Source: Escherichia coli
GTDB lineage: Bacteria > Pseudomonadota > Gammaproteobacteria > Enterobacterales > Enterobacteriaceae
Length of the DNA: 4,727 bases
NCBI RefSeq assembly: GCF_011045215.1
Contig: NZ_CP049203.1
Direction: 5' to 3' (one strand)
In this document: one piece after another, positions 3 to 4,203 of the stretch
Layout of the letters: each line of letters opens with the position of its first letter
Position numbering within the stretch: the stretch's first letter is position 1
Position numbers and translations under genes: made by a program
Notes under the pieces: generated by a model
Database searches by the model: none
The model's input: only the letters and a program-made list of their open reading frames with translations
Told to the model about the DNA's origin: nothing

Positions 3-39
3 GATGTATTTCATCCATAAATATAAGATGAAATACATC
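3..39 (-). terminator. Stem-loop just downstream of the lysozyme-like gene (13-bp stem, 11-nt loop); candidate terminator or attenuator
   Basis: gatgtatttcatc (3-15) is the exact reverse complement of gatgaaatacatc (27-39). It lies about 20 nt past the stop codon on the minus strand. The 3' flank runs off the window, so a U-tract cannot be confirmed. Confidence 0.3.
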
Positions 40-58
40 ACATATCTACAATTATATA

Positions 59-808
59 TTAACGCTTATCTCGCAACTGCGCAGCTGTATCTTTATTTCT
101 CTGATCACCTCTTTGATGTAAATTTCGATGGCTCTCTTGTGCAGCCGTCTCCCAGTCACCACGATTAACTGCAGCATTGAAATTAGGAAAATCTTTAGAT
201 AACTTAGGGATACCTAAATTAAACCCCATGTCAACCAACGCTGTTTTCCTTGAATTAGAAAAACCATCATAACCAGAATACAAAGAACGCAATCCCTTCT
301 CTGTCACTTGAACATCACTAATACATAAACCGATAACAGCATTATTTGATAAATGTAAGTTCATAGGAACTTGTCTAGAATCTTTTTTAAAATTATTAAA
401 CGCCTCTGTAATTTCCTCTTTAGATGCGGAAACCTCTTTTTCCATATCATCACCATGAGCATGCCATGTATGTGTTCTTGAAAATGGAAGGGATGCAGCC
501 ATATCAGGCGTAGATAGTAAATGACCGATTCCAACAGTAATATTTCCCTCACTGTCTTTGTACATTGTGTTTTTAAAACCTTCATGAGATTTCAAATTAT
601 TAACACACATAGTCATATAAAAACCATCATAACTCCTAGTGGAGGAAATATTTATGTGTGTCTTATCAGAAATGCCCTCATGACTATTCCCTCCAGAGTG
701 TCCACCATAGCTACTATGATTATCACCATCATAACTATGAATCGTGCCATAAGGGGTATCATGATCGTGCCATCCCGGACCTTGATTAGAACTTTCAATA
801 CCGCTCAT
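59..808 (-). CDS. T4-type lysozyme (GH24 muramidase) domain protein with Gly/Ser/His-rich N-terminal extension, 249 aa; candidate SOS-inducible cell-wall-degrading bacteriocin
   Basis: Long ORF in AT-rich DNA. Start set at ATG 808-806 (Met31 of the 279-aa track ORF) because AGAGGA lies 8 nt upstream and the earlier Met codons are upstream of the LexA box; stop TAA at 61-59. Residues ~85-249 align by eye with T4 lysozyme: SHEGFKNTMYKDSEGNITVGIGHLL vs T4L [25 protein letters not shown], with Glu, Asp and Thr at T4L-equivalent spacing (E11/D20/T26); C-terminal RKTALVDMGFNLG and DWETAAQ match T4L RRAAINMVFQMG and WDEAAV. Confidence 0.85.
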   Translation of the reverse strand: MSGIESSNQGPGWHDHDTPYGTIHSYDGDNHSSYGGHSGGNSHEGISDKTHINISSTRSYDGFYMTMCVNNLKSHEGFKNTMYKDSEGNITVGIGHLLSTPDMAASLPFSRTHTWHAHGDDMEKEVSASKEEITEAFNNFKKDSRQVPMNLHLSNNAVIGLCISDVQVTEKGLRSLYSGYDGFSNSRKTALVDMGFNLGIPKLSKDFPNFNAAVNRGDWETAAQESHRNLHQRGDQRNKDTAAQLRDKR

Positions 809-844
809 ATTAATTTCCTCTTTGACTAACAAATAACAACACCA

Positions 845-898
845 CACAAAACTGTGTTTATATACAGTATACTTACGCCTCTCCATATTCCCTGTCAA
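845..898 (-). promoter_or_regulatory. Promoter region of the lysozyme-like gene: consensus -35 TTGACA (893-898); -10 ambiguous
   Basis: Minus strand reads TTGACA-gggaatatggagaggcg-TAAGTA-TACTGTATATAAACACAG. TAAGTA (870-875) gives a 17-bp spacer but is a poor -10; TATACT (866-871) is a better hexamer but gives a 21-bp spacer. The -10 cannot be fixed from sequence alone. Confidence 0.5.
850..869 (-). promoter_or_regulatory. LexA (SOS) box
   Basis: Minus strand TACTGTATATAAACACAGTT: CTGT-N8-ACAG with AT-rich spacer, 17 of 20 matches to consensus TACTGTATATATATACAGTA, placed between the -35 and the start codon as in colicin promoters. Only one box is seen; many colicins have two. Confidence 0.65.
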
Positions 899-1036
899 GA
901 ATATGGATTTTCATTTTTGTGATATAAATCAAAAAAAATCAATCGTGAGTAGTTCCAAGAGAAACATACGCGAACACTTCATCTAATCGAAAACGAGTGA
1001 AAGATATTTCCAAGAAAAATAAATAATAAGGGCTGC

Positions 1037-1072
1037 GTTTGGGAAACGTACAATAATTTCCGTTTCCCAAAC
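1037..1072 (-). terminator. Stem-loop (12-bp stem, 12-nt loop) between cer and the bacteriocin promoter; candidate terminator or insulator for leftward transcription
   Basis: gtttgggaaacg (1037-1048) pairs with cgtttcccaaac (1061-1072). On the minus strand it is followed by GCAGCCC then a T-rich run (TTATTATTTATTTTT). The T-run is not immediately adjacent, so this is only a candidate. Confidence 0.3.
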
Positions 1073-1115
1073 CGCCCCCAATAAGGCCGCCACACTACAG
1101 CTTTTGCATTAACAC

Positions 1116-1340
1116 ATTTACCATAATCCCTTAATTGTACGCACCGCTGAAACGCTCTCAGACGCTTTCTGACGCAAAAACCGTAAAAAGAGATGTTTTC
1201 CCCCGGGTAAACCGAAAAAATGCGTCAGGAACGTTTTCAGCGCGTTGCATGACTATGCATGAAACTGAATGGCGATCGGTTTGGGCGCGTCCGGTGTCTC
1301 AAAGGCTTATTTTCGGATGTTTTCGTCCTCCGGCGTCGTT
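1116..1340 (-). other. cer: cer-like Xer site-specific recombination (multimer resolution) site: XerC/XerD core 1116-1145 plus ~190 bp accessory region
   Basis: Minus strand 1145-1116 reads GGTGCGTACAA-TTAAGGGA-TTATGGTAAAT, identical to the ColE1 cer XerC arm, 8-bp central region and XerD arm as I recall them. The accessory sequences would extend rightward on the + strand; the far boundary is approximate. Confidence 0.75.
1245..1262. promoter_or_regulatory. Candidate ArgR box within the cer accessory region
   Basis: ttGCATgactATGCAtga resembles the ARG box TnTGAATwwwwATTCAnw (two half-sites, 4-bp spacer) and lies about 100 bp from the XerC arm, where cer carries its ArgR site. The match is imperfect. 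Confidence 0.3.
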
Positions 1341-1367
1341 TTTCCGGCTCCTCCTGGTGGCCAGAAG

Positions 1368-1582
1368 CAGCACCGTAACGGTGCCTGCCTCACAGTGCTG
1401 GATCCAGCACCGCAGCACCGTAAGCAGCACCGTAAAGGGAAAATCCAGCCACAATCCAGCACCATAACAGGCACCGTTACAGTGCCTGTTGTTGATTAAC
1501 ACCATGATTAATAAGGATTAGCACTGTAGCAGTGCCGGTTACAGTGCTTGATCCAGCCACAATCCGGCACCGTTGCGGTGCT
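1368..1582. repeat. Dense cluster of short palindromes and direct repeats built on GCACCG / CAGTGC, flanking an AT-rich core (1487-1520)
   Basis: CAGCACCGTAA x3 (1368-1378, 1413-1423, 1425-1435). Palindromes: gcaccgt-a-acggtgc (1370-1384), perfect 16-bp gtgctggatccagcac (1395-1410), ggcac-N7-gtgcc (1470-1486), gcactg-tag-cagtgc (1521-1535), gcaccg-ttg-cggtgc (1567-1581). Direct repeat atccagccacaatcc[a/g]gcacc at 1443-1463 and 1551-1571. Confidence 0.6.
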
Positions 1583-1832
1583 GCGTATGGCGGAAAAACG
1601 TAAATTTTGCCACCTGAAATAATTCTAATGCACTGATTCCAAAGAGAAATCATGCAAAACGCAGTTTTGCGACAGGTGTGGTGACAGCAGGTCAGAGAAG
1701 GGGCGGATTCAGATATGAATCCGGGCCAGATCCGGGCATTAAGGGGTTCCCGGAAACATGAATAAGATTGCCAGTGCACGGGGATTTTTAATCCCCTGCC
1801 CCGTTGAGCCGCTCCACGGCGAAAAGGGGAAA

Positions 1833-1852
1833 GTAAAGTTAGCTAACTTTAC
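1833..1852. repeat. Perfect 20-bp palindrome gtaaagttagctaactttac; candidate operator or minus-strand terminator hairpin
   Basis: Self-complementary over all 20 bp. On the minus strand it is followed directly by TTTCCCCTTTTC and lies about 130 nt downstream of the stop of ORF 1981-2226. Confidence 0.5.
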
Positions 1853-1980
1853 ATGTCCTGCCCGGCGTTCACCGGTGTTTATGGCGGGGAACTGAACCAC
1901 CGGACGGGTGGAAACATGTGTATTCCTGTGTGCCCCTGTGTAATCCGGTGGATTTGTGTGTGCAAAATTCCGTAGCCGGT

Positions 1981-2226
1981 TCACCTGCGCCTCGCCGGCT
2001 GCCAGGTAAACGTGTTCTCTGCGGCACGATATGCTTTTGTTCGTTGAGCCTTTGCGCTTCTCGCTCTGCGTTCTGCCCGAATCATTCTCAAAACTTTTGC
2101 ACGCACTTTTCGCTTAACTTCCCGTGGCAGCTCTTCTTTGTCGGATAACTGCAACTGCGCAGCCTGTAAGGCATACGCATCACTGATACGCTTACGTTCT
2201 GCCACTGTCAGTTTCACCCAATACAT
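1981..2226 (-). CDS. Hypothetical small basic protein (81 aa), possibly ribbon-helix-helix-like DNA-binding or relaxosome-accessory remnant
   Basis: ORF with a G-rich Shine-Dalgarno-like sequence (GGGGGATAGGT) before the ATG. The protein is strongly basic and helix-prone (KRKVRAKVLRMIRAERRARSAKAQR). Its N-terminus WVKLTVAERKRISDAYA resembles the strand-helix start of RHH proteins. No firm homology; GC-rich DNA produces chance ORFs. Confidence 0.35.
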   Translation of the reverse strand: MYWVKLTVAERKRISDAYALQAAQLQLSDKEELPREVKRKVRAKVLRMIRAERRARSAKAQRTKAYRAAENTFTWQPARRR

Positions 2227-2322
2227 ACCTATCCCCCTGGCAACTTCCCGGAGTTATGCCTTTCGCTGTTTCCTGTTCGTTGTCGTTCGTCTGAGGTGTC
2301 GAGGCTGTGCCCTGACCAGGCA

Positions 2323-2498
2323 TTTTGTAGCACTGCCGCATCGGTGGCGGTGCTACAAAACATATCCTGTCCCGTCGATGGGGCAGGATATCACGTCCGT
2401 TAGTTTTCATCGTCCGGGGTGCAGGGGTGGCACTCCTGCCAGGCGTTTTGCTGAACGGCCATCACCGATGGCGGTTCAACAAAACATATCCTGTCCCG
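2323..2498. repeat. Two ~30-bp imperfect direct repeats (2345-2374 and 2469-2498) with associated inverted repeats
   Basis: tggcggt-NNN-acaaaacatatcctgtcccg occurs twice about 124 bp apart. An 11-bp inverted repeat ttttgtagcac / gtgctacaaaa (2323-2333 / 2350-2360) overlaps the first copy, and atatcctgtccc / ggggcaggatat (2362-2373 / 2380-2391) is a 12-bp inverted repeat with one mismatch. Confidence 0.55.
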
Positions 2499-2632
2499 CC
2501 TTTGCGTTCGCCGTTCGCGCATTGATGGCCAGCTTTGGCCAGTACACTGGCCATCACGCCGGGTCACTTTGTCAGATGTTAAAAAATCACGCGGTAAACG
2601 CCGTTATGCGCGGGTTTGCGCATGAAGCTCCC

Positions 2633-2667
2633 GTGCGTCACTTTGTCAAAAAGTCAAAGTGACGCAC
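2633..2667. repeat. Perfect 13-bp inverted repeat with 9-bp spacer (gtgcgtcactttg ... caaagtgacgcac)
   Basis: 2633-2645 is the exact reverse complement of 2655-2667. No flanking T-tract on either strand, so a protein-binding site is more likely than a terminator. Confidence 0.55.
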
Positions 2668-2816
2668 ATCAGGAACCGCCGGAACGTTCGTGTTGATGAC
2701 GGCAACATGCGCACAACGCAGACAGAAAATCGCGCACATATTCAGCAAAAAATAAGCGTCACGGGGTGTTAATTTCGTGCAGCCCACGCGTGGCAGGGCT
2801 TGTGTGATAATTTTCA

Positions 2817-2852
2817 GTGACGTCACCTGGTGTGATGACCAGGTGACGCACA
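2817..2852. repeat. Inverted repeat cgtcacctggt / accaggtgacg (11-bp arms, 6-bp spacer) carrying GTGACG(T/C)CAC motifs, about 40 bp upstream of rop
   Basis: 2821-2831 pairs with 2838-2848. The 10-bp palindrome gtgacgtcac sits at 2817-2826 and GTGACGCAC at 2844-2852; the same 9-mer occurs at 2659-2667 and inverted at 2633-2641. Confidence 0.55.
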
Positions 2853-2891
2853 GGCGGACGTAATAAACACCAGTAACGGAGACGGGAGAAC

Positions 2892-3086
2892 GTGAACAAA
2901 CAGCAACAGACCGCGCTCAACATGGCGCGATTCATCAAAAGCCAGAGCCTGACATTACTCGGGAAACTTGACGCTCTGGACGCCGACGAACAGGCCACCC
3001 TGTGCGAACGGCTACACGAACTGGCGGAAGAACTCTGTGACAGCGTACAGACGCACTTTGAGGCGCAGTACAGCACGGAACCATAA
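2892..3086 (+). CDS. rop: Rop/Rom, RNA I-RNA II pairing modulator of ColE1-type replicons (64 aa, GTG start)
   Basis: MNKQQQTALNMARFIKSQSLTLLGKLDALDADEQATLCERLHELAEELC aligns along its length with pMB1/pBR322 Rop (MTKQEKTALNMARFIRSQTLTLLEKLNELDADEQADICESLHDHADELY, from memory). It is oriented toward the origin as in pBR322. Stop TAA at 3084-3086; GGAGA/GGGAGA precedes the GTG. Confidence 0.9.
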   Translation: MNKQQQTALNMARFIKSQSLTLLGKLDALDADEQATLCERLHELAEELCDSVQTHFEAQYSTEP

Positions 3087-3796
3087 CAGGGGCTGGCGAA
3101 AGCGGTCGCGGCTCGTCCGTGAGCGTTTTCGCCAGCAGACAAGCCCGGAGAGCGCGTCAGGACATGGGCTGAGAGAAACACCGGCGCGTAAGTGCTCAAA
3201 TCAGACTGGCGGAGACATTCCGCTTCCTCGCCCACTCGCTCACTACGTTCGGTCGCTGGGGCTGCGGCGAGCGGTGACGGCTCTCTCATAACGGCGGACA
3301 GTTTATCCACAGAATCGGGGGATAAGCCGGACAGAACATGTGAGCAAAAAGCACGAACAAAAAGGCCGCGGCGGGGCCGTTTTTCCATAGGCTCCGCCTC
3401 CCCCTGGCGAGCTTCACACTTTTCGAAGCTGCAAGCCTAGGATTTGACGAAACCCGATGTGGCTTCAAGATCATCACCGTTTCCGGTGAATCGCTCCCCC
3501 CTGCGACCTCCACATTCCCGCCATATCGTTTGCCGGATACCTTACCGCCTTTCCCCTTGCGGGACCGTGGCGCTTTCTCATAGCTCACGTGCATCTCTGC
3601 GGTATCTCGGGCGACTTAGGCAGTTCGCTCCAGGTCTGGCTGTATGCAGGACCCCCCCTTTCAGCCTGACTGCTGCGCCTGTTCCGGTAACTGTTCTCTT
3701 GAGGCCAACCCGGAAAGACACGCCTTAACGCCACTGGCAGCAGCCACTGGTAACTGGATTTGCAGAGCGAGATGTATACAGATGGTTACAGAGTTC

Positions 3797-3825
3797 TTGA
3801 GTAACAGCCCTCTTATGGCTACACT
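3797..3825 (+). promoter_or_regulatory. RNA I promoter (-35 TTGAGT, 17-bp spacer, -10 TACACT)
   Basis: Positionally equivalent to the pBR322 RNA I promoter (TTGAAG-N17-TACACT), with the transcript start about 7 nt downstream. Confidence 0.6.
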
Positions 3826-3831
3826 AGAGGG

Positions 3832-3940
3832 ACAGTTTTTAGGTAATCTGCGCTCTGCGATAGCCAGTTACCATTGGAACAATGAGAAGGTGAGATGTCT
3901 CATCGCTCCCGGAAAAAACCGCCTTACGGCGGTTTTTTCC
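3832..3940 (+). ncRNA. RNA I (antisense replication inhibitor)
   Basis: Begins ACAGTTTTTAGGTAATCTGCGCTCTGC (pMB1 RNA I begins ACAGTATTTGGTATCTGCGCTCTGC) and ends in the hairpin plus U-tract aaaaaaccgcc-ttac-ggcggtttttt (3913-3936). About 108 nt, antisense to the 5' end of RNA II. Confidence 0.8.
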
Positions 3941-3953
3941 GTTTACAAGCCGA

Positions 3954-3982
3954 AGATTACGCGCAGCGGCAAAGGATCTCAA
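3954..3982 (-). promoter_or_regulatory. RNA II promoter (-35 TTGAGA, 17-bp spacer, -10 TAATCT)
   Basis: Minus strand reads TTGAGA-tcctttgccgctgcgcg-TAATCT-tcggctt-G. The hexamers are identical to the pBR322 RNA II promoter. Confidence 0.7.
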
Positions 3983-4203
3983 GAGGATCTTTTGCGATCC
4001 GCCTGAAACTCATCACCGTAATTCCGTCTGTGGAATAAACGCAACCTTTTGCACATTATCGGTTAAATCATAACGAATTTGCATATACAACTGCGGTTCA
4101 AAGCCAGTAAACTGGGGGGCGAAGCCCAACCGTTACCAGCTTTGGTGACGTAATTTCCTGAAGTTCCAGCGTAGAACACCAGTTACCAAAAAACGAACAC
4201 AAC

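Follow-up and report, generated by a model that had tools for sequence, protein, structure and literature searches.

The 4,727-nt stretch of Escherichia coli DNA analyzed here (the window) carries a perfect 13-bp inverted repeat shortly after the stop codon of a gene for a lysozyme-like toxin. The question raised by this locus is whether the repeat acts as a hairpin in the operon transcript and, if so, how it would affect the ratio between the toxin and the product of the next gene. That next gene lies at the opposite end of the window, and a preliminary description had made its proposal depend on the two ends being joined, asking that circularity be established. The window is a small circular ColE1-type plasmid. 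Its positions 1116-4000 match hundreds of Rop/RNAI plasmids, and an RNAI match was obtained in the equivalent region of a near-identical contig (L098). Roughly 1.85 kb of cargo (4000-4727 plus 1-1115) makes up the rest; its minus strand carries, in order, the TTGACA/LexA box, the toxin gene, the hairpin and then, past the window end, a Shine-Dalgarno sequence, a mini-ORF and a 159-aa ORF. L098, from a food metagenome, is collinear with window positions 3498-4727 followed directly by 1-982, at 99.9% identity, on a backbone that differs from that of the window. The 111 nt that lead from the toxin stop codon into the beginning of the partner ORF recur unchanged in ten additional contigs, drawn from E. 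coli assemblies and from metagenomes. Plasmids of the E. coli p1303_5 family align without a break over the 4727/1 junction, and the partner protein of the window is also recorded from a 4727-bp E. coli contig. With 11 independent contigs and the p1303_5 family reading across 4727/1, the ends are adjacent and the premise of the preliminary description holds. The hairpin travels together with the operon on differing plasmid backbones.

The toxin gene (59..808, minus strand; ATG 808..806, stop codon TAA 61..59) codes for a bacteriocin-like protein of 249 aa whose N-terminal region is rich in Gly and His; a T4-lysozyme (GH24) domain makes up the C-terminal part. This domain scored 39.1 bits against Pfam Phage_lysozyme (cut-off 22.3) and matched PDB T4 lysozyme chains across the catalytic region with E about 1e-6. 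The exact protein was found on 43 contigs, where the sources call it a GH24 lysozyme. Colicin Z was considered as a known relative and rejected. Further relatives were sought in metagenomes with a degenerate DNA pattern for the toxin motif AVNRGDW, which gave 120 loci, mostly chance matches, of which about 10 were kept after filtering by tblastn. Upstream of the gene lies an SOS-type promoter (852..898, minus strand) formed by a -35 hexamer TTGACA (898..893) and a LexA box CTGTATATAAACACAG (867..852; CTGT-N8-ACAG), and this layout, including the TTGACA hexamer, recurs in p1303_5. As judged from this putative LexA box, the toxin gene is presumably under SOS/LexA control.

The partner gene (4204..4683, minus strand) codes for 159 aa as called. 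Its product is 56% identical to a protein of p1303_5 (L001) and 34-38% identical to Klebsiella and Raoultella proteins encoded after homologous toxins. Contigs from E. coli, Klebsiella, Raoultella, Pantoea and metagenomes have a homolog right after a homologous toxin gene; these homologs carry Sec-type signal peptides and share two Cys residues that never vary. The proposal that the downstream ORF is a partner of the toxin holds: it belongs to a conserved small family of signal-peptide proteins trailing this toxin. No relative of the partner was found in Pfam, NCBIfam or PDB; the toxin and immunity families have no curated name, and no paper on them was found. An annotated colicin-release lysis gene follows the partner gene in several operons (L001/L003, L002 and L013-L015), with a gap between immunity and lysis genes of 11 nt and no hairpin in L001; none follows it in L076, L064 or the window. 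For the window, a tblastn search with three lysis proteins of the family gave only noise (E >= 0.13), and no lysis gene was recognizable. Truncation of the toxin gene in some contigs has left the partner and lysis genes in place. Since the partner gene always comes after the toxin gene, is usually followed by the lysis gene and persists where the toxin is truncated, we presume that it is the immunity gene. A second set of relatives has, after the toxin gene, a convergent gene for a protein of about 210 aa.

Between the toxin and the presumed immunity genes, the repeat (repeat I6; 3..39, minus strand) consists of the arms GATGTATTTCATC (3-15) and GATGAAATACATC (27-39), complementary at 13 of 13 positions and separated by 11 nt. 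In the sense RNA these become a 5' arm GAUGUAUUUCAUC (39..27), a loop UUAUAUUUAUG (26..16) and a 3' arm GAUGAAAUACAUC (15..3). The preliminary description, which placed a perfect 13-bp stem about 20 nt past the lysozyme stop, was exact: the stem starts 19 nt after the TAA codon, beyond an A/U-rich spacer (40..58, minus strand). The isolated hairpin has a predicted folding energy of -16.6 kcal/mol with 14 pairs, four of them G-C, and the loop is reduced to 9 nt once a U.G pair closes. Folding of 70 nt of sense-strand RNA gave -20.6 kcal/mol, versus -10.1 +/- 2.4 for shuffled sequences (z = -4.3; 0/200 shuffles as good). The 1.85-kb cargo was also shuffled 300 times with its dinucleotide composition preserved; perfect inverted repeats with loops of 3-20 nt then reached 11 bp at most, and none of 13 bp appeared. 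Rfam 15 contains no family for the hairpin, and the equivalent region of L098 gave no match; the sole Rfam match over the hairpin, in L001, was a spurious miRNA precursor (22.7 bits versus a gathering score of 75). The exact hairpin pattern matched only once among 100,044 species-representative genomes, in a p1303_5-like contig filed under Pseudomonas sp., and this revealed no new variant. A function of the repeat on the plus strand was rejected: the ORF at 4..168 (+) is antisense to the toxin gene and lacks support, and the plus-strand tail is not U-rich.

Comparison with relatives revealed a hairpin 12-23 nt past the toxin stop codon in every Enterobacteriaceae co-directional operon examined, in six distinct variants. 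The window and 11 sister contigs share the arms GATGTATTTCATC / GATGAAATACATC with an 11-nt loop, and p1303_5 has the same arms with a loop of 10 nt. The other variants have the arms CTCCTGCCAT / ATGGCAGGAG (Klebsiella, L002), TTGCTCCTATCT / GGATGGGAGCAA (Raoultella, L007), AGGTTCCCATCA / TGATGGGAACCT (metagenome, L076) and TTGCTCCCATC / GATGGGAGCAA (toxin-truncated lineage, L013), the last of these followed by GGA and T8. Energies of the six variants range from -16.0 to -19.4 kcal/mol despite very different G+C content, the stem of the window having 14 A/U-rich pairs versus 10-12 richer pairs in the other variants. The stem and the immunity start are separated by about 18-67 nt, depending on the variant. 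Since the distance from the stop codon is constrained and that to the immunity start is variable, the element appears to be tied to the 3' end of the toxin gene. The loop measures 10 or 11 nt in E. coli and 3-7 nt elsewhere, while stem stability stays constant, which disfavors a spacing-dependent palindrome bound by a protein.

The E. coli and Klebsiella hairpins could not be aligned by MAFFT in a single structural register, and covariation was therefore counted lineage by lineage. Among the Klebsiella/Raoultella-type sequences (n = 4), both sides had changed in 8 of 12 pairs, 93.8% of the cells were paired (versus at most 48% with a slid partner), and the observed covariation score was reached by none of 500 shuffles. 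The Raoultella variant L007 has two U.G pairs on the sense strand that would be C.A mismatches on the antisense strand; these wobble pairs, fitting the sense strand alone, point to the sense-strand RNA and are a further reason for rejecting a plus-strand function. Within the own lineage of the window (window, L001, L137, L138 and L140), 11 of 13 pairs are invariant and the sole changes, in L138 and L140, break pairs 4 and 13 without compensation, so support for the hairpin in this lineage comes from conservation. That conservation is marked between the window and p1303_5: all 26 stem bases are identical, while identity is about 82% in the toxin gene, about 62% in the immunity gene and about 55-60% in the flanking non-coding and spacer sequences. 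The Pantoea-type co-directional operons (L064 and L141) have no significant hairpin (z = 0.24), which indicates that the element is common and not indispensable to the gene pair.

The preliminary description had envisaged a partial terminator, as in colicin operons. The location agrees with this, as the hairpin is intercistronic in a colicin-like operon with an SOS promoter, but the defining features of an intrinsic terminator are lacking. These were taken as a stable stem-loop, a G+C-rich stem with a loop of 3-8 nt, and at least five U in the 8 nt directly after it. A stable stem-loop is predicted in the nascent RNA (-16.6 kcal/mol, 14 pairs; z = -4.3), but only 4/14 pairs are G-C, the loop is 9-11 nt, and the tail UAAAUAUU has four U in 8 nt and starts with UAA. 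A terminator scan called the site neither in the window nor in p1303_5. By these usual criteria the hairpin is probably not a classical terminator. The U-tract is absent in all five distinct intact-operon variants, which have 2-4 U in the first 8 nt. In the convergent-gene relatives, a canonical G+C-rich hairpin with a T-run closes the toxin gene, and only one co-directional lineage has a stem followed by GGA and T8. This is the lineage whose toxin gene is truncated, having lost its front, and in it a deletion relative to L007/L076 has moved the T-run close to the stem. That intact operons lack a U-tract, while the truncated one has it next to the stem, suggests that intact operons have been kept competent for read-through. 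Past the partner gene, no canonical terminator-like hairpin occurs before a perfect 14-bp repeat (repeat I4; 3910..3941, minus strand), the bidirectional RNAI-region hairpin, which the scan called terminator-like on the minus strand at 3930..3918; it is a possible end of the operon transcript.

An experimentally studied hairpin with which that of the window can be compared is T1 of ColE7/ColE2, described as a terminator that limits read-through and yields short and long mRNAs (PMC2896534; PMC5157957). Reported effects of T1 are reduced expression of the cistron that follows it and altered mRNA stability, and its loop in ColE7 carries a mapped CsrA site (PMC2896534). This ratio-setting T1 provides the precedent invoked by the preliminary description, which had placed such elements after the activity or immunity gene; T1 lies in the gap between the immunity and lysis genes only, whereas the hairpin studied here lies between the activity and immunity genes. 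The two share their setting, a polycistronic bacteriocin operon driven by the SOS response on a small plasmid of ColE1 type: in the window a putative LexA box and TTGACA precede the toxin gene, and toxin and partner genes are contiguous in 11 contigs. They are also alike in stability, -16.6 kcal/mol for the hairpin versus -18.5 kcal/mol for the ColE-type T1 of a real plasmid (L136). The T1 tail, UUUCACAA, has no good U-tract, so neither element has a strong one, and neither was called by the scan. Both contain the 12-mer UUUAUGGAUGAA. They differ in that the window has no lysis gene, the T1 stem is G+C-richer, the CsrA-binding GGA of T1 is not conserved in the relatives of the hairpin, and there is no homology beyond those 12 nt. 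With intrinsic terminators the hairpin shares a stable stem-loop shortly past a stop codon and a tail of A/U only, and it departs from them in its four G-C pairs, its 9-11 nt loop and the lack of consecutive U at the start of the tail. Hairpins that stabilize mRNA offer a further comparison. The REP sequences of malE-malF are intercistronic barriers to 3' exonucleases, and papA and ompA provide examples of stabilizing 5' stem-loops. Like such hairpins, that of the window is a stable stem-loop lacking a U-tract, and it separates a highly expressed upstream cistron from downstream cistrons in the same operon, and its structure rather than its sequence is conserved across lineages. Unlike the REP family of dispersed repeats, it is a single hairpin confined to one family of operons. 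In all, the hairpin is ordinary biology of a known class, the intercistronic hairpins of bacteriocin operons.

Based on these comparisons, we tentatively favor, with a probability of roughly 45%, the reading that the repeat is the copy in the window of a position-conserved, T1-like intercistronic RNA stem-loop marking the 3' boundary of the toxin cistron in co-directional operons for toxin, immunity and sometimes lysis proteins, and that it acts mainly as a decay barrier and at most weakly in termination. Upon SOS induction, transcription would proceed from the LexA-controlled promoter through the toxin gene, and the hairpin (about -17 kcal/mol) would form just beyond the footprint of a ribosome on the stop codon. 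There it would give a toxin-only message a stable 3' end, chiefly by blocking 3'->5' exonucleases after cleavage further downstream; termination at the hairpin would be inefficient at most. Because of this proposed protection of the toxin-only 3' end, toxin mRNA would exceed that of the downstream gene or genes. As expected of a decay barrier, a stable stem-loop without a U-tract lies just 3' of the stop codon (19 nt in the window, 12-23 nt across the six variants). Compensatory substitutions, also expected of one, are found in 8/12 pairs in the Klebsiella/Raoultella type but not in the lineage of the window, which has 11/13 invariant pairs and two with mismatches only. From the sequences we infer that the hairpin acts in RNA, that it would shift the ratio in favor of the toxin, and that more of its effect would come from protection against decay than from termination. 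As for the proposal that the hairpin sets the ratio of toxin to partner, its outcome, less downstream than toxin message, would agree with the favored reading, while the partial-terminator mechanism offered for it is unproven and non-canonical. The hairpin could equally work as a 5' stem-loop stabilizing the downstream message after cleavage in the A/U-rich spacer, in which case the ratio would be reversed.

If the hairpin were instead a partial intrinsic terminator, polymerase would drop a fraction of the transcripts after the stem and so set read-through into the immunity gene directly. In favor of such a role are its stability of -16.6 kcal/mol and its tail, of which the first 11 nt are all A/U (UAAAUAUUAUU): the estimated RNA:DNA hybrid of -5.2 kcal/mol is comparable to that of the canonical L013 site (-5.9) and weaker than that of ColE T1 (-6.8). 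Moreover, T1 is described as a read-through-limiting terminator and yet is missed by the same scan, and a sister lineage has made the homologous hairpin canonical by placing T8 after the stem. These points are set against the four U in the first 8 nt, the UAA start, the 9-11 nt loop, the 4/14 G-C pairs and the lack of a called site in the window or L001. In the other intact operons the tails contain 2-3 U and have estimated hybrids of -7.8 to -9.6 kcal/mol, and such strong-hybrid, U-poor tails rule out termination as the family-wide function of the hairpin. We regard a partial terminator as unlikely for the element as such, though partial termination may occur in this particular plasmid given its weak, pure-A/U tail. 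A neutral or DNA-level repeat that plays no part in expression was also weighed, for instance a scar left by recombination where the toxin and immunity modules meet, or a palindrome kept by descent. The site does mark a module boundary, as the window and p1303_5 are about 82% identical up to the hairpin and only about 60% identical immediately beyond it; in addition, there is no covariation in the E. coli lineage, two relatives have uncompensated mismatches, and the Pantoea-type operons have no hairpin. We nevertheless give this reading little credence, as other lineages have, at this position, covarying hairpins of equal stability that are unrelated in sequence, all 26 bases of the stem are shared by the window and p1303_5 amid far more divergent non-coding flanks, and the element moves with the operon across plasmid backbones.

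Two further readings assign the hairpin region to control of the immunity gene. A promoter-like match, TAGATA-17-TATATT (9/12; 20..48, minus strand), has its -10 hexamer inside the hairpin loop, and the palindrome could thus house a constitutive immunity promoter whose transcripts would start in the 3' arm, the hairpin forming only in SOS read-through transcripts. An immunity gene should need expression independent of SOS; the window (48..20) and p1303_5 have this 9/12 match in common, optimally spaced; and the conserved block begins at TAGATATG, 9 nt before the stem. The number of promoter-like matches in the window is at chance level, however (6 found, 6.2 expected), and the Klebsiella/Raoultella operons keep the hairpin without an equivalent match; only L076 has a good one, which lies downstream of the hairpin. 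In p1303_5, such a promoter would also drive the lysis gene 11 nt past the immunity gene. These observations make an immunity promoter very unlikely. The other reading would make the hairpin responsive to CsrA, as in ColE7 T1, with CsrA bound to the GGA at the junction of loop and 3' arm and to that of the Shine-Dalgarno sequence repressing downstream translation. The 12-mer UUUAUGGAUGAA (10..21, minus strand), which includes a GGA, is common to the loop of the ColE-type T1 with its mapped CsrA site, and a second GGA, in GGGGGAG, lies 28 nt downstream; the motifs of the window are thus AUGGAUG at the hairpin and GGGGGAG at the Shine-Dalgarno sequence. The similarity is confined to 12 nt, though, and its local alignment score was matched by 9 of 1000 shuffles; the GGA of the window lies largely within the stem, and the motif is not conserved, as p1303_5 has AGA at that position and the Shine-Dalgarno regions of Klebsiella have no GGA. 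A CsrA-responsive hairpin was accordingly considered extremely unlikely.

Downstream of the hairpin, the leader of the immunity gene has features of its own. In the joined sequence, the Shine-Dalgarno sequence GGGGGAG (4712..4718, minus strand) lies 13 nt past the hairpin and 2 nt before the ATG at 4709, and in the minimum-energy fold it does not pair with the hairpin. That ATG opens a nine-codon mini-ORF, MLKRFFFVQ* (4680..4709, minus strand), which includes a run of nine T (4697..4689) and whose TGA overlaps the next ATG (ATGA). The fixed T9 run of the immunity gene throws the signal peptide of the family out of frame: in the alignment, one added T restores a family-typical signal peptide, MLKRFFFCAMILFSGSIYA|SV. 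T9 was present in 11 of 11 related contigs examined, and the repaired 168-aa partner protein was absent among about 15 billion sequences. A second helix is predicted (4676..4727, minus strand), in which AAUAUUAUUG (4727..4718) pairs with CAAUGAUAUU (4685..4676). This helix would enclose the Shine-Dalgarno sequence together with the mini-ORF and its U9 run and would mask the AUG at 4683; it was found in the own lineage of the window only. The sense-strand fold of the joined 123 nt reached -32.3 kcal/mol (z = -4.7). These elements could be combined into a composite device, in which the hairpin would be the first layer of a post-transcriptional dosing of a periplasmic immunity protein whose output would be throttled by recoding. 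The stem-loop would limit or stabilize the message, and the strong Shine-Dalgarno sequence would drive the mini-ORF containing U9. The true immunity AUG would be hidden in the helix formed with the sequence just 3' of the hairpin. The signal-peptide-bearing immunity protein would then arise only through termination-reinitiation at AUGA or through transcriptional slippage from U9 to U10. We consider such a device quite improbable.

By itself the hairpin matters little, as stem-loops are known for uncoupling the expression of toxin, immunity and lysis genes in colicin-type operons. It places this lysozyme-type bacteriocin and its partner in a single transcription unit of a circular plasmid, and it offers a defined and mutable element with which to probe how the stoichiometry of toxin and immunity is set; an immunity protein acting in the periplasm need not match its toxin one-to-one. 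The comparison of intact with toxin-truncated operons constitutes a small natural experiment on the conversion of a read-through hairpin into a full terminator. Of more interest than the hairpin itself is the system around it: an uncharacterized family of GH24-lysozyme bacteriocins with two alternative immunity-gene architectures.

Immediately upstream of the partner gene, on the minus strand, lies a mini-ORF of nine codons (MLKRFFFVQ*; window 4680-4709), whose ATG at 4709 is served by a strong Shine-Dalgarno sequence (GGGGGAG) and whose TGA stop codon shares bases with the ATG start codon of the partner ORF (159 aa) in an ATGA overlap. The mini-ORF contains a run of nine T residues (window 4689-4697, minus strand). 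With a tenth T in this run, the reading frame would yield MLKRFFFCAMILFSGSIYA|SV, a sequence that can be aligned to the signal peptide of every family member. The repaired partner protein, with one T added, was searched for among approximately 15 billion sequences and had no record, and because of this absence the T9 run is not a sequencing error. The run was kept in all of the related contigs examined (11/11). Three explanations of this arrangement are possible: translational coupling of the mini-ORF to the partner ORF, transcriptional slippage on the U9 run, or a weakened signal peptide.

The same region was predicted to form a second helix of 10 bp on the minus strand, in which AAUAUUAUUG pairs with CAAUGAUAUU (window 4718-4727 and 4676-4685). 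In this fold prediction, the Shine-Dalgarno sequence, the mini-ORF and the U9 run are enclosed by the helix, and the AUG of the 159-aa ORF is sequestered. The energy predicted for the joined 123-nt fold was -32.3 kcal/mol (z = -4.7). This predicted helix was seen only in the lineage of the window.

Comparison of the window with p1303_5, a related E. coli plasmid family, revealed a nucleotide identity of about 82% in the toxin gene and about 60% in the immunity gene, and the drop was located right at the hairpin (cargo positions ~1100-1130; window 3 to 4700). At the protein level, identity was 88% between the toxins and 56% between the immunity proteins. Either faster divergence of the immunity gene or a boundary of recombination located at the hairpin could account for this drop. 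On the 3' side of the partner gene (window 3990-4203, minus strand) no colicin lysis gene was found, whereas one follows the partner gene in p1303_5 and in the Klebsiella and Raoultella relatives; the window partner protein ends in a lineage-specific C-terminal extension, NGGSDRVAANGDK. Four Raoultella/Klebsiella plasmids (L013, L014, L015, and L025) carry orphan immunity-plus-lysis modules adjoining a truncated toxin gene, of which only the last ~110 codons are left. In these plasmids the homologous hairpin is a canonical terminator (stem, GGA and T8), which arose via loss of GTCATAAGTAA, a segment seen in the Raoultella locus L007 and the metagenomic locus L076.

Two other relatives were unusual. 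A p1303_5-type toxin operon with an identical hairpin was present on a 7.6-kb contig (NZ_JAHBDQ010000047.1) filed under Pseudomonas sp. A-RE-19, an unexpected host for Escherichia ColE1-type cargo; this label may be due to contamination or a mixed culture. One E. coli contig (UCVZ01000047.1) has two called 159-aa partner-type genes (1301-1780 and 2238-2717) downstream of a single toxin gene, and this pair may represent a tandem duplication of the immunity gene or result from assembly of a plasmid multimer.

At the toxin promoter, a 9-bp inverted repeat (TCCATATTC/GAATATGGA; window 882-907) brackets the -35 TTGACA. On the plus strand, the repeat precedes TTTTCATTTT, and a terminator scan scored it as terminator-like. 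The repeat, which is absent from p1303_5, may insulate the toxin promoter against incoming plus-strand transcription.

Database records name every product of the loci compared (window 59-808 and 4204-4683; L001-L011, L064, L076, and L141) either a hypothetical protein or a glycoside hydrolase. Colicin Z was considered as a relative and proved to be unrelated. The toxin family is represented on plasmids of E. coli, Klebsiella, Enterobacter, Raoultella, and Rahnella, as well as on a Pantoea contig of 315 kb, in two architectures: in one, the partner is co-directional, has a signal peptide and measures ~160 aa, and a colicin lysis gene may or may not be present; in the other, the partner is convergent and measures ~210 aa. 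The toxin is a member of a family, apparently not yet described, of SOS-controlled bacteriocin-like proteins that contain a GH24/T4-lysozyme domain.
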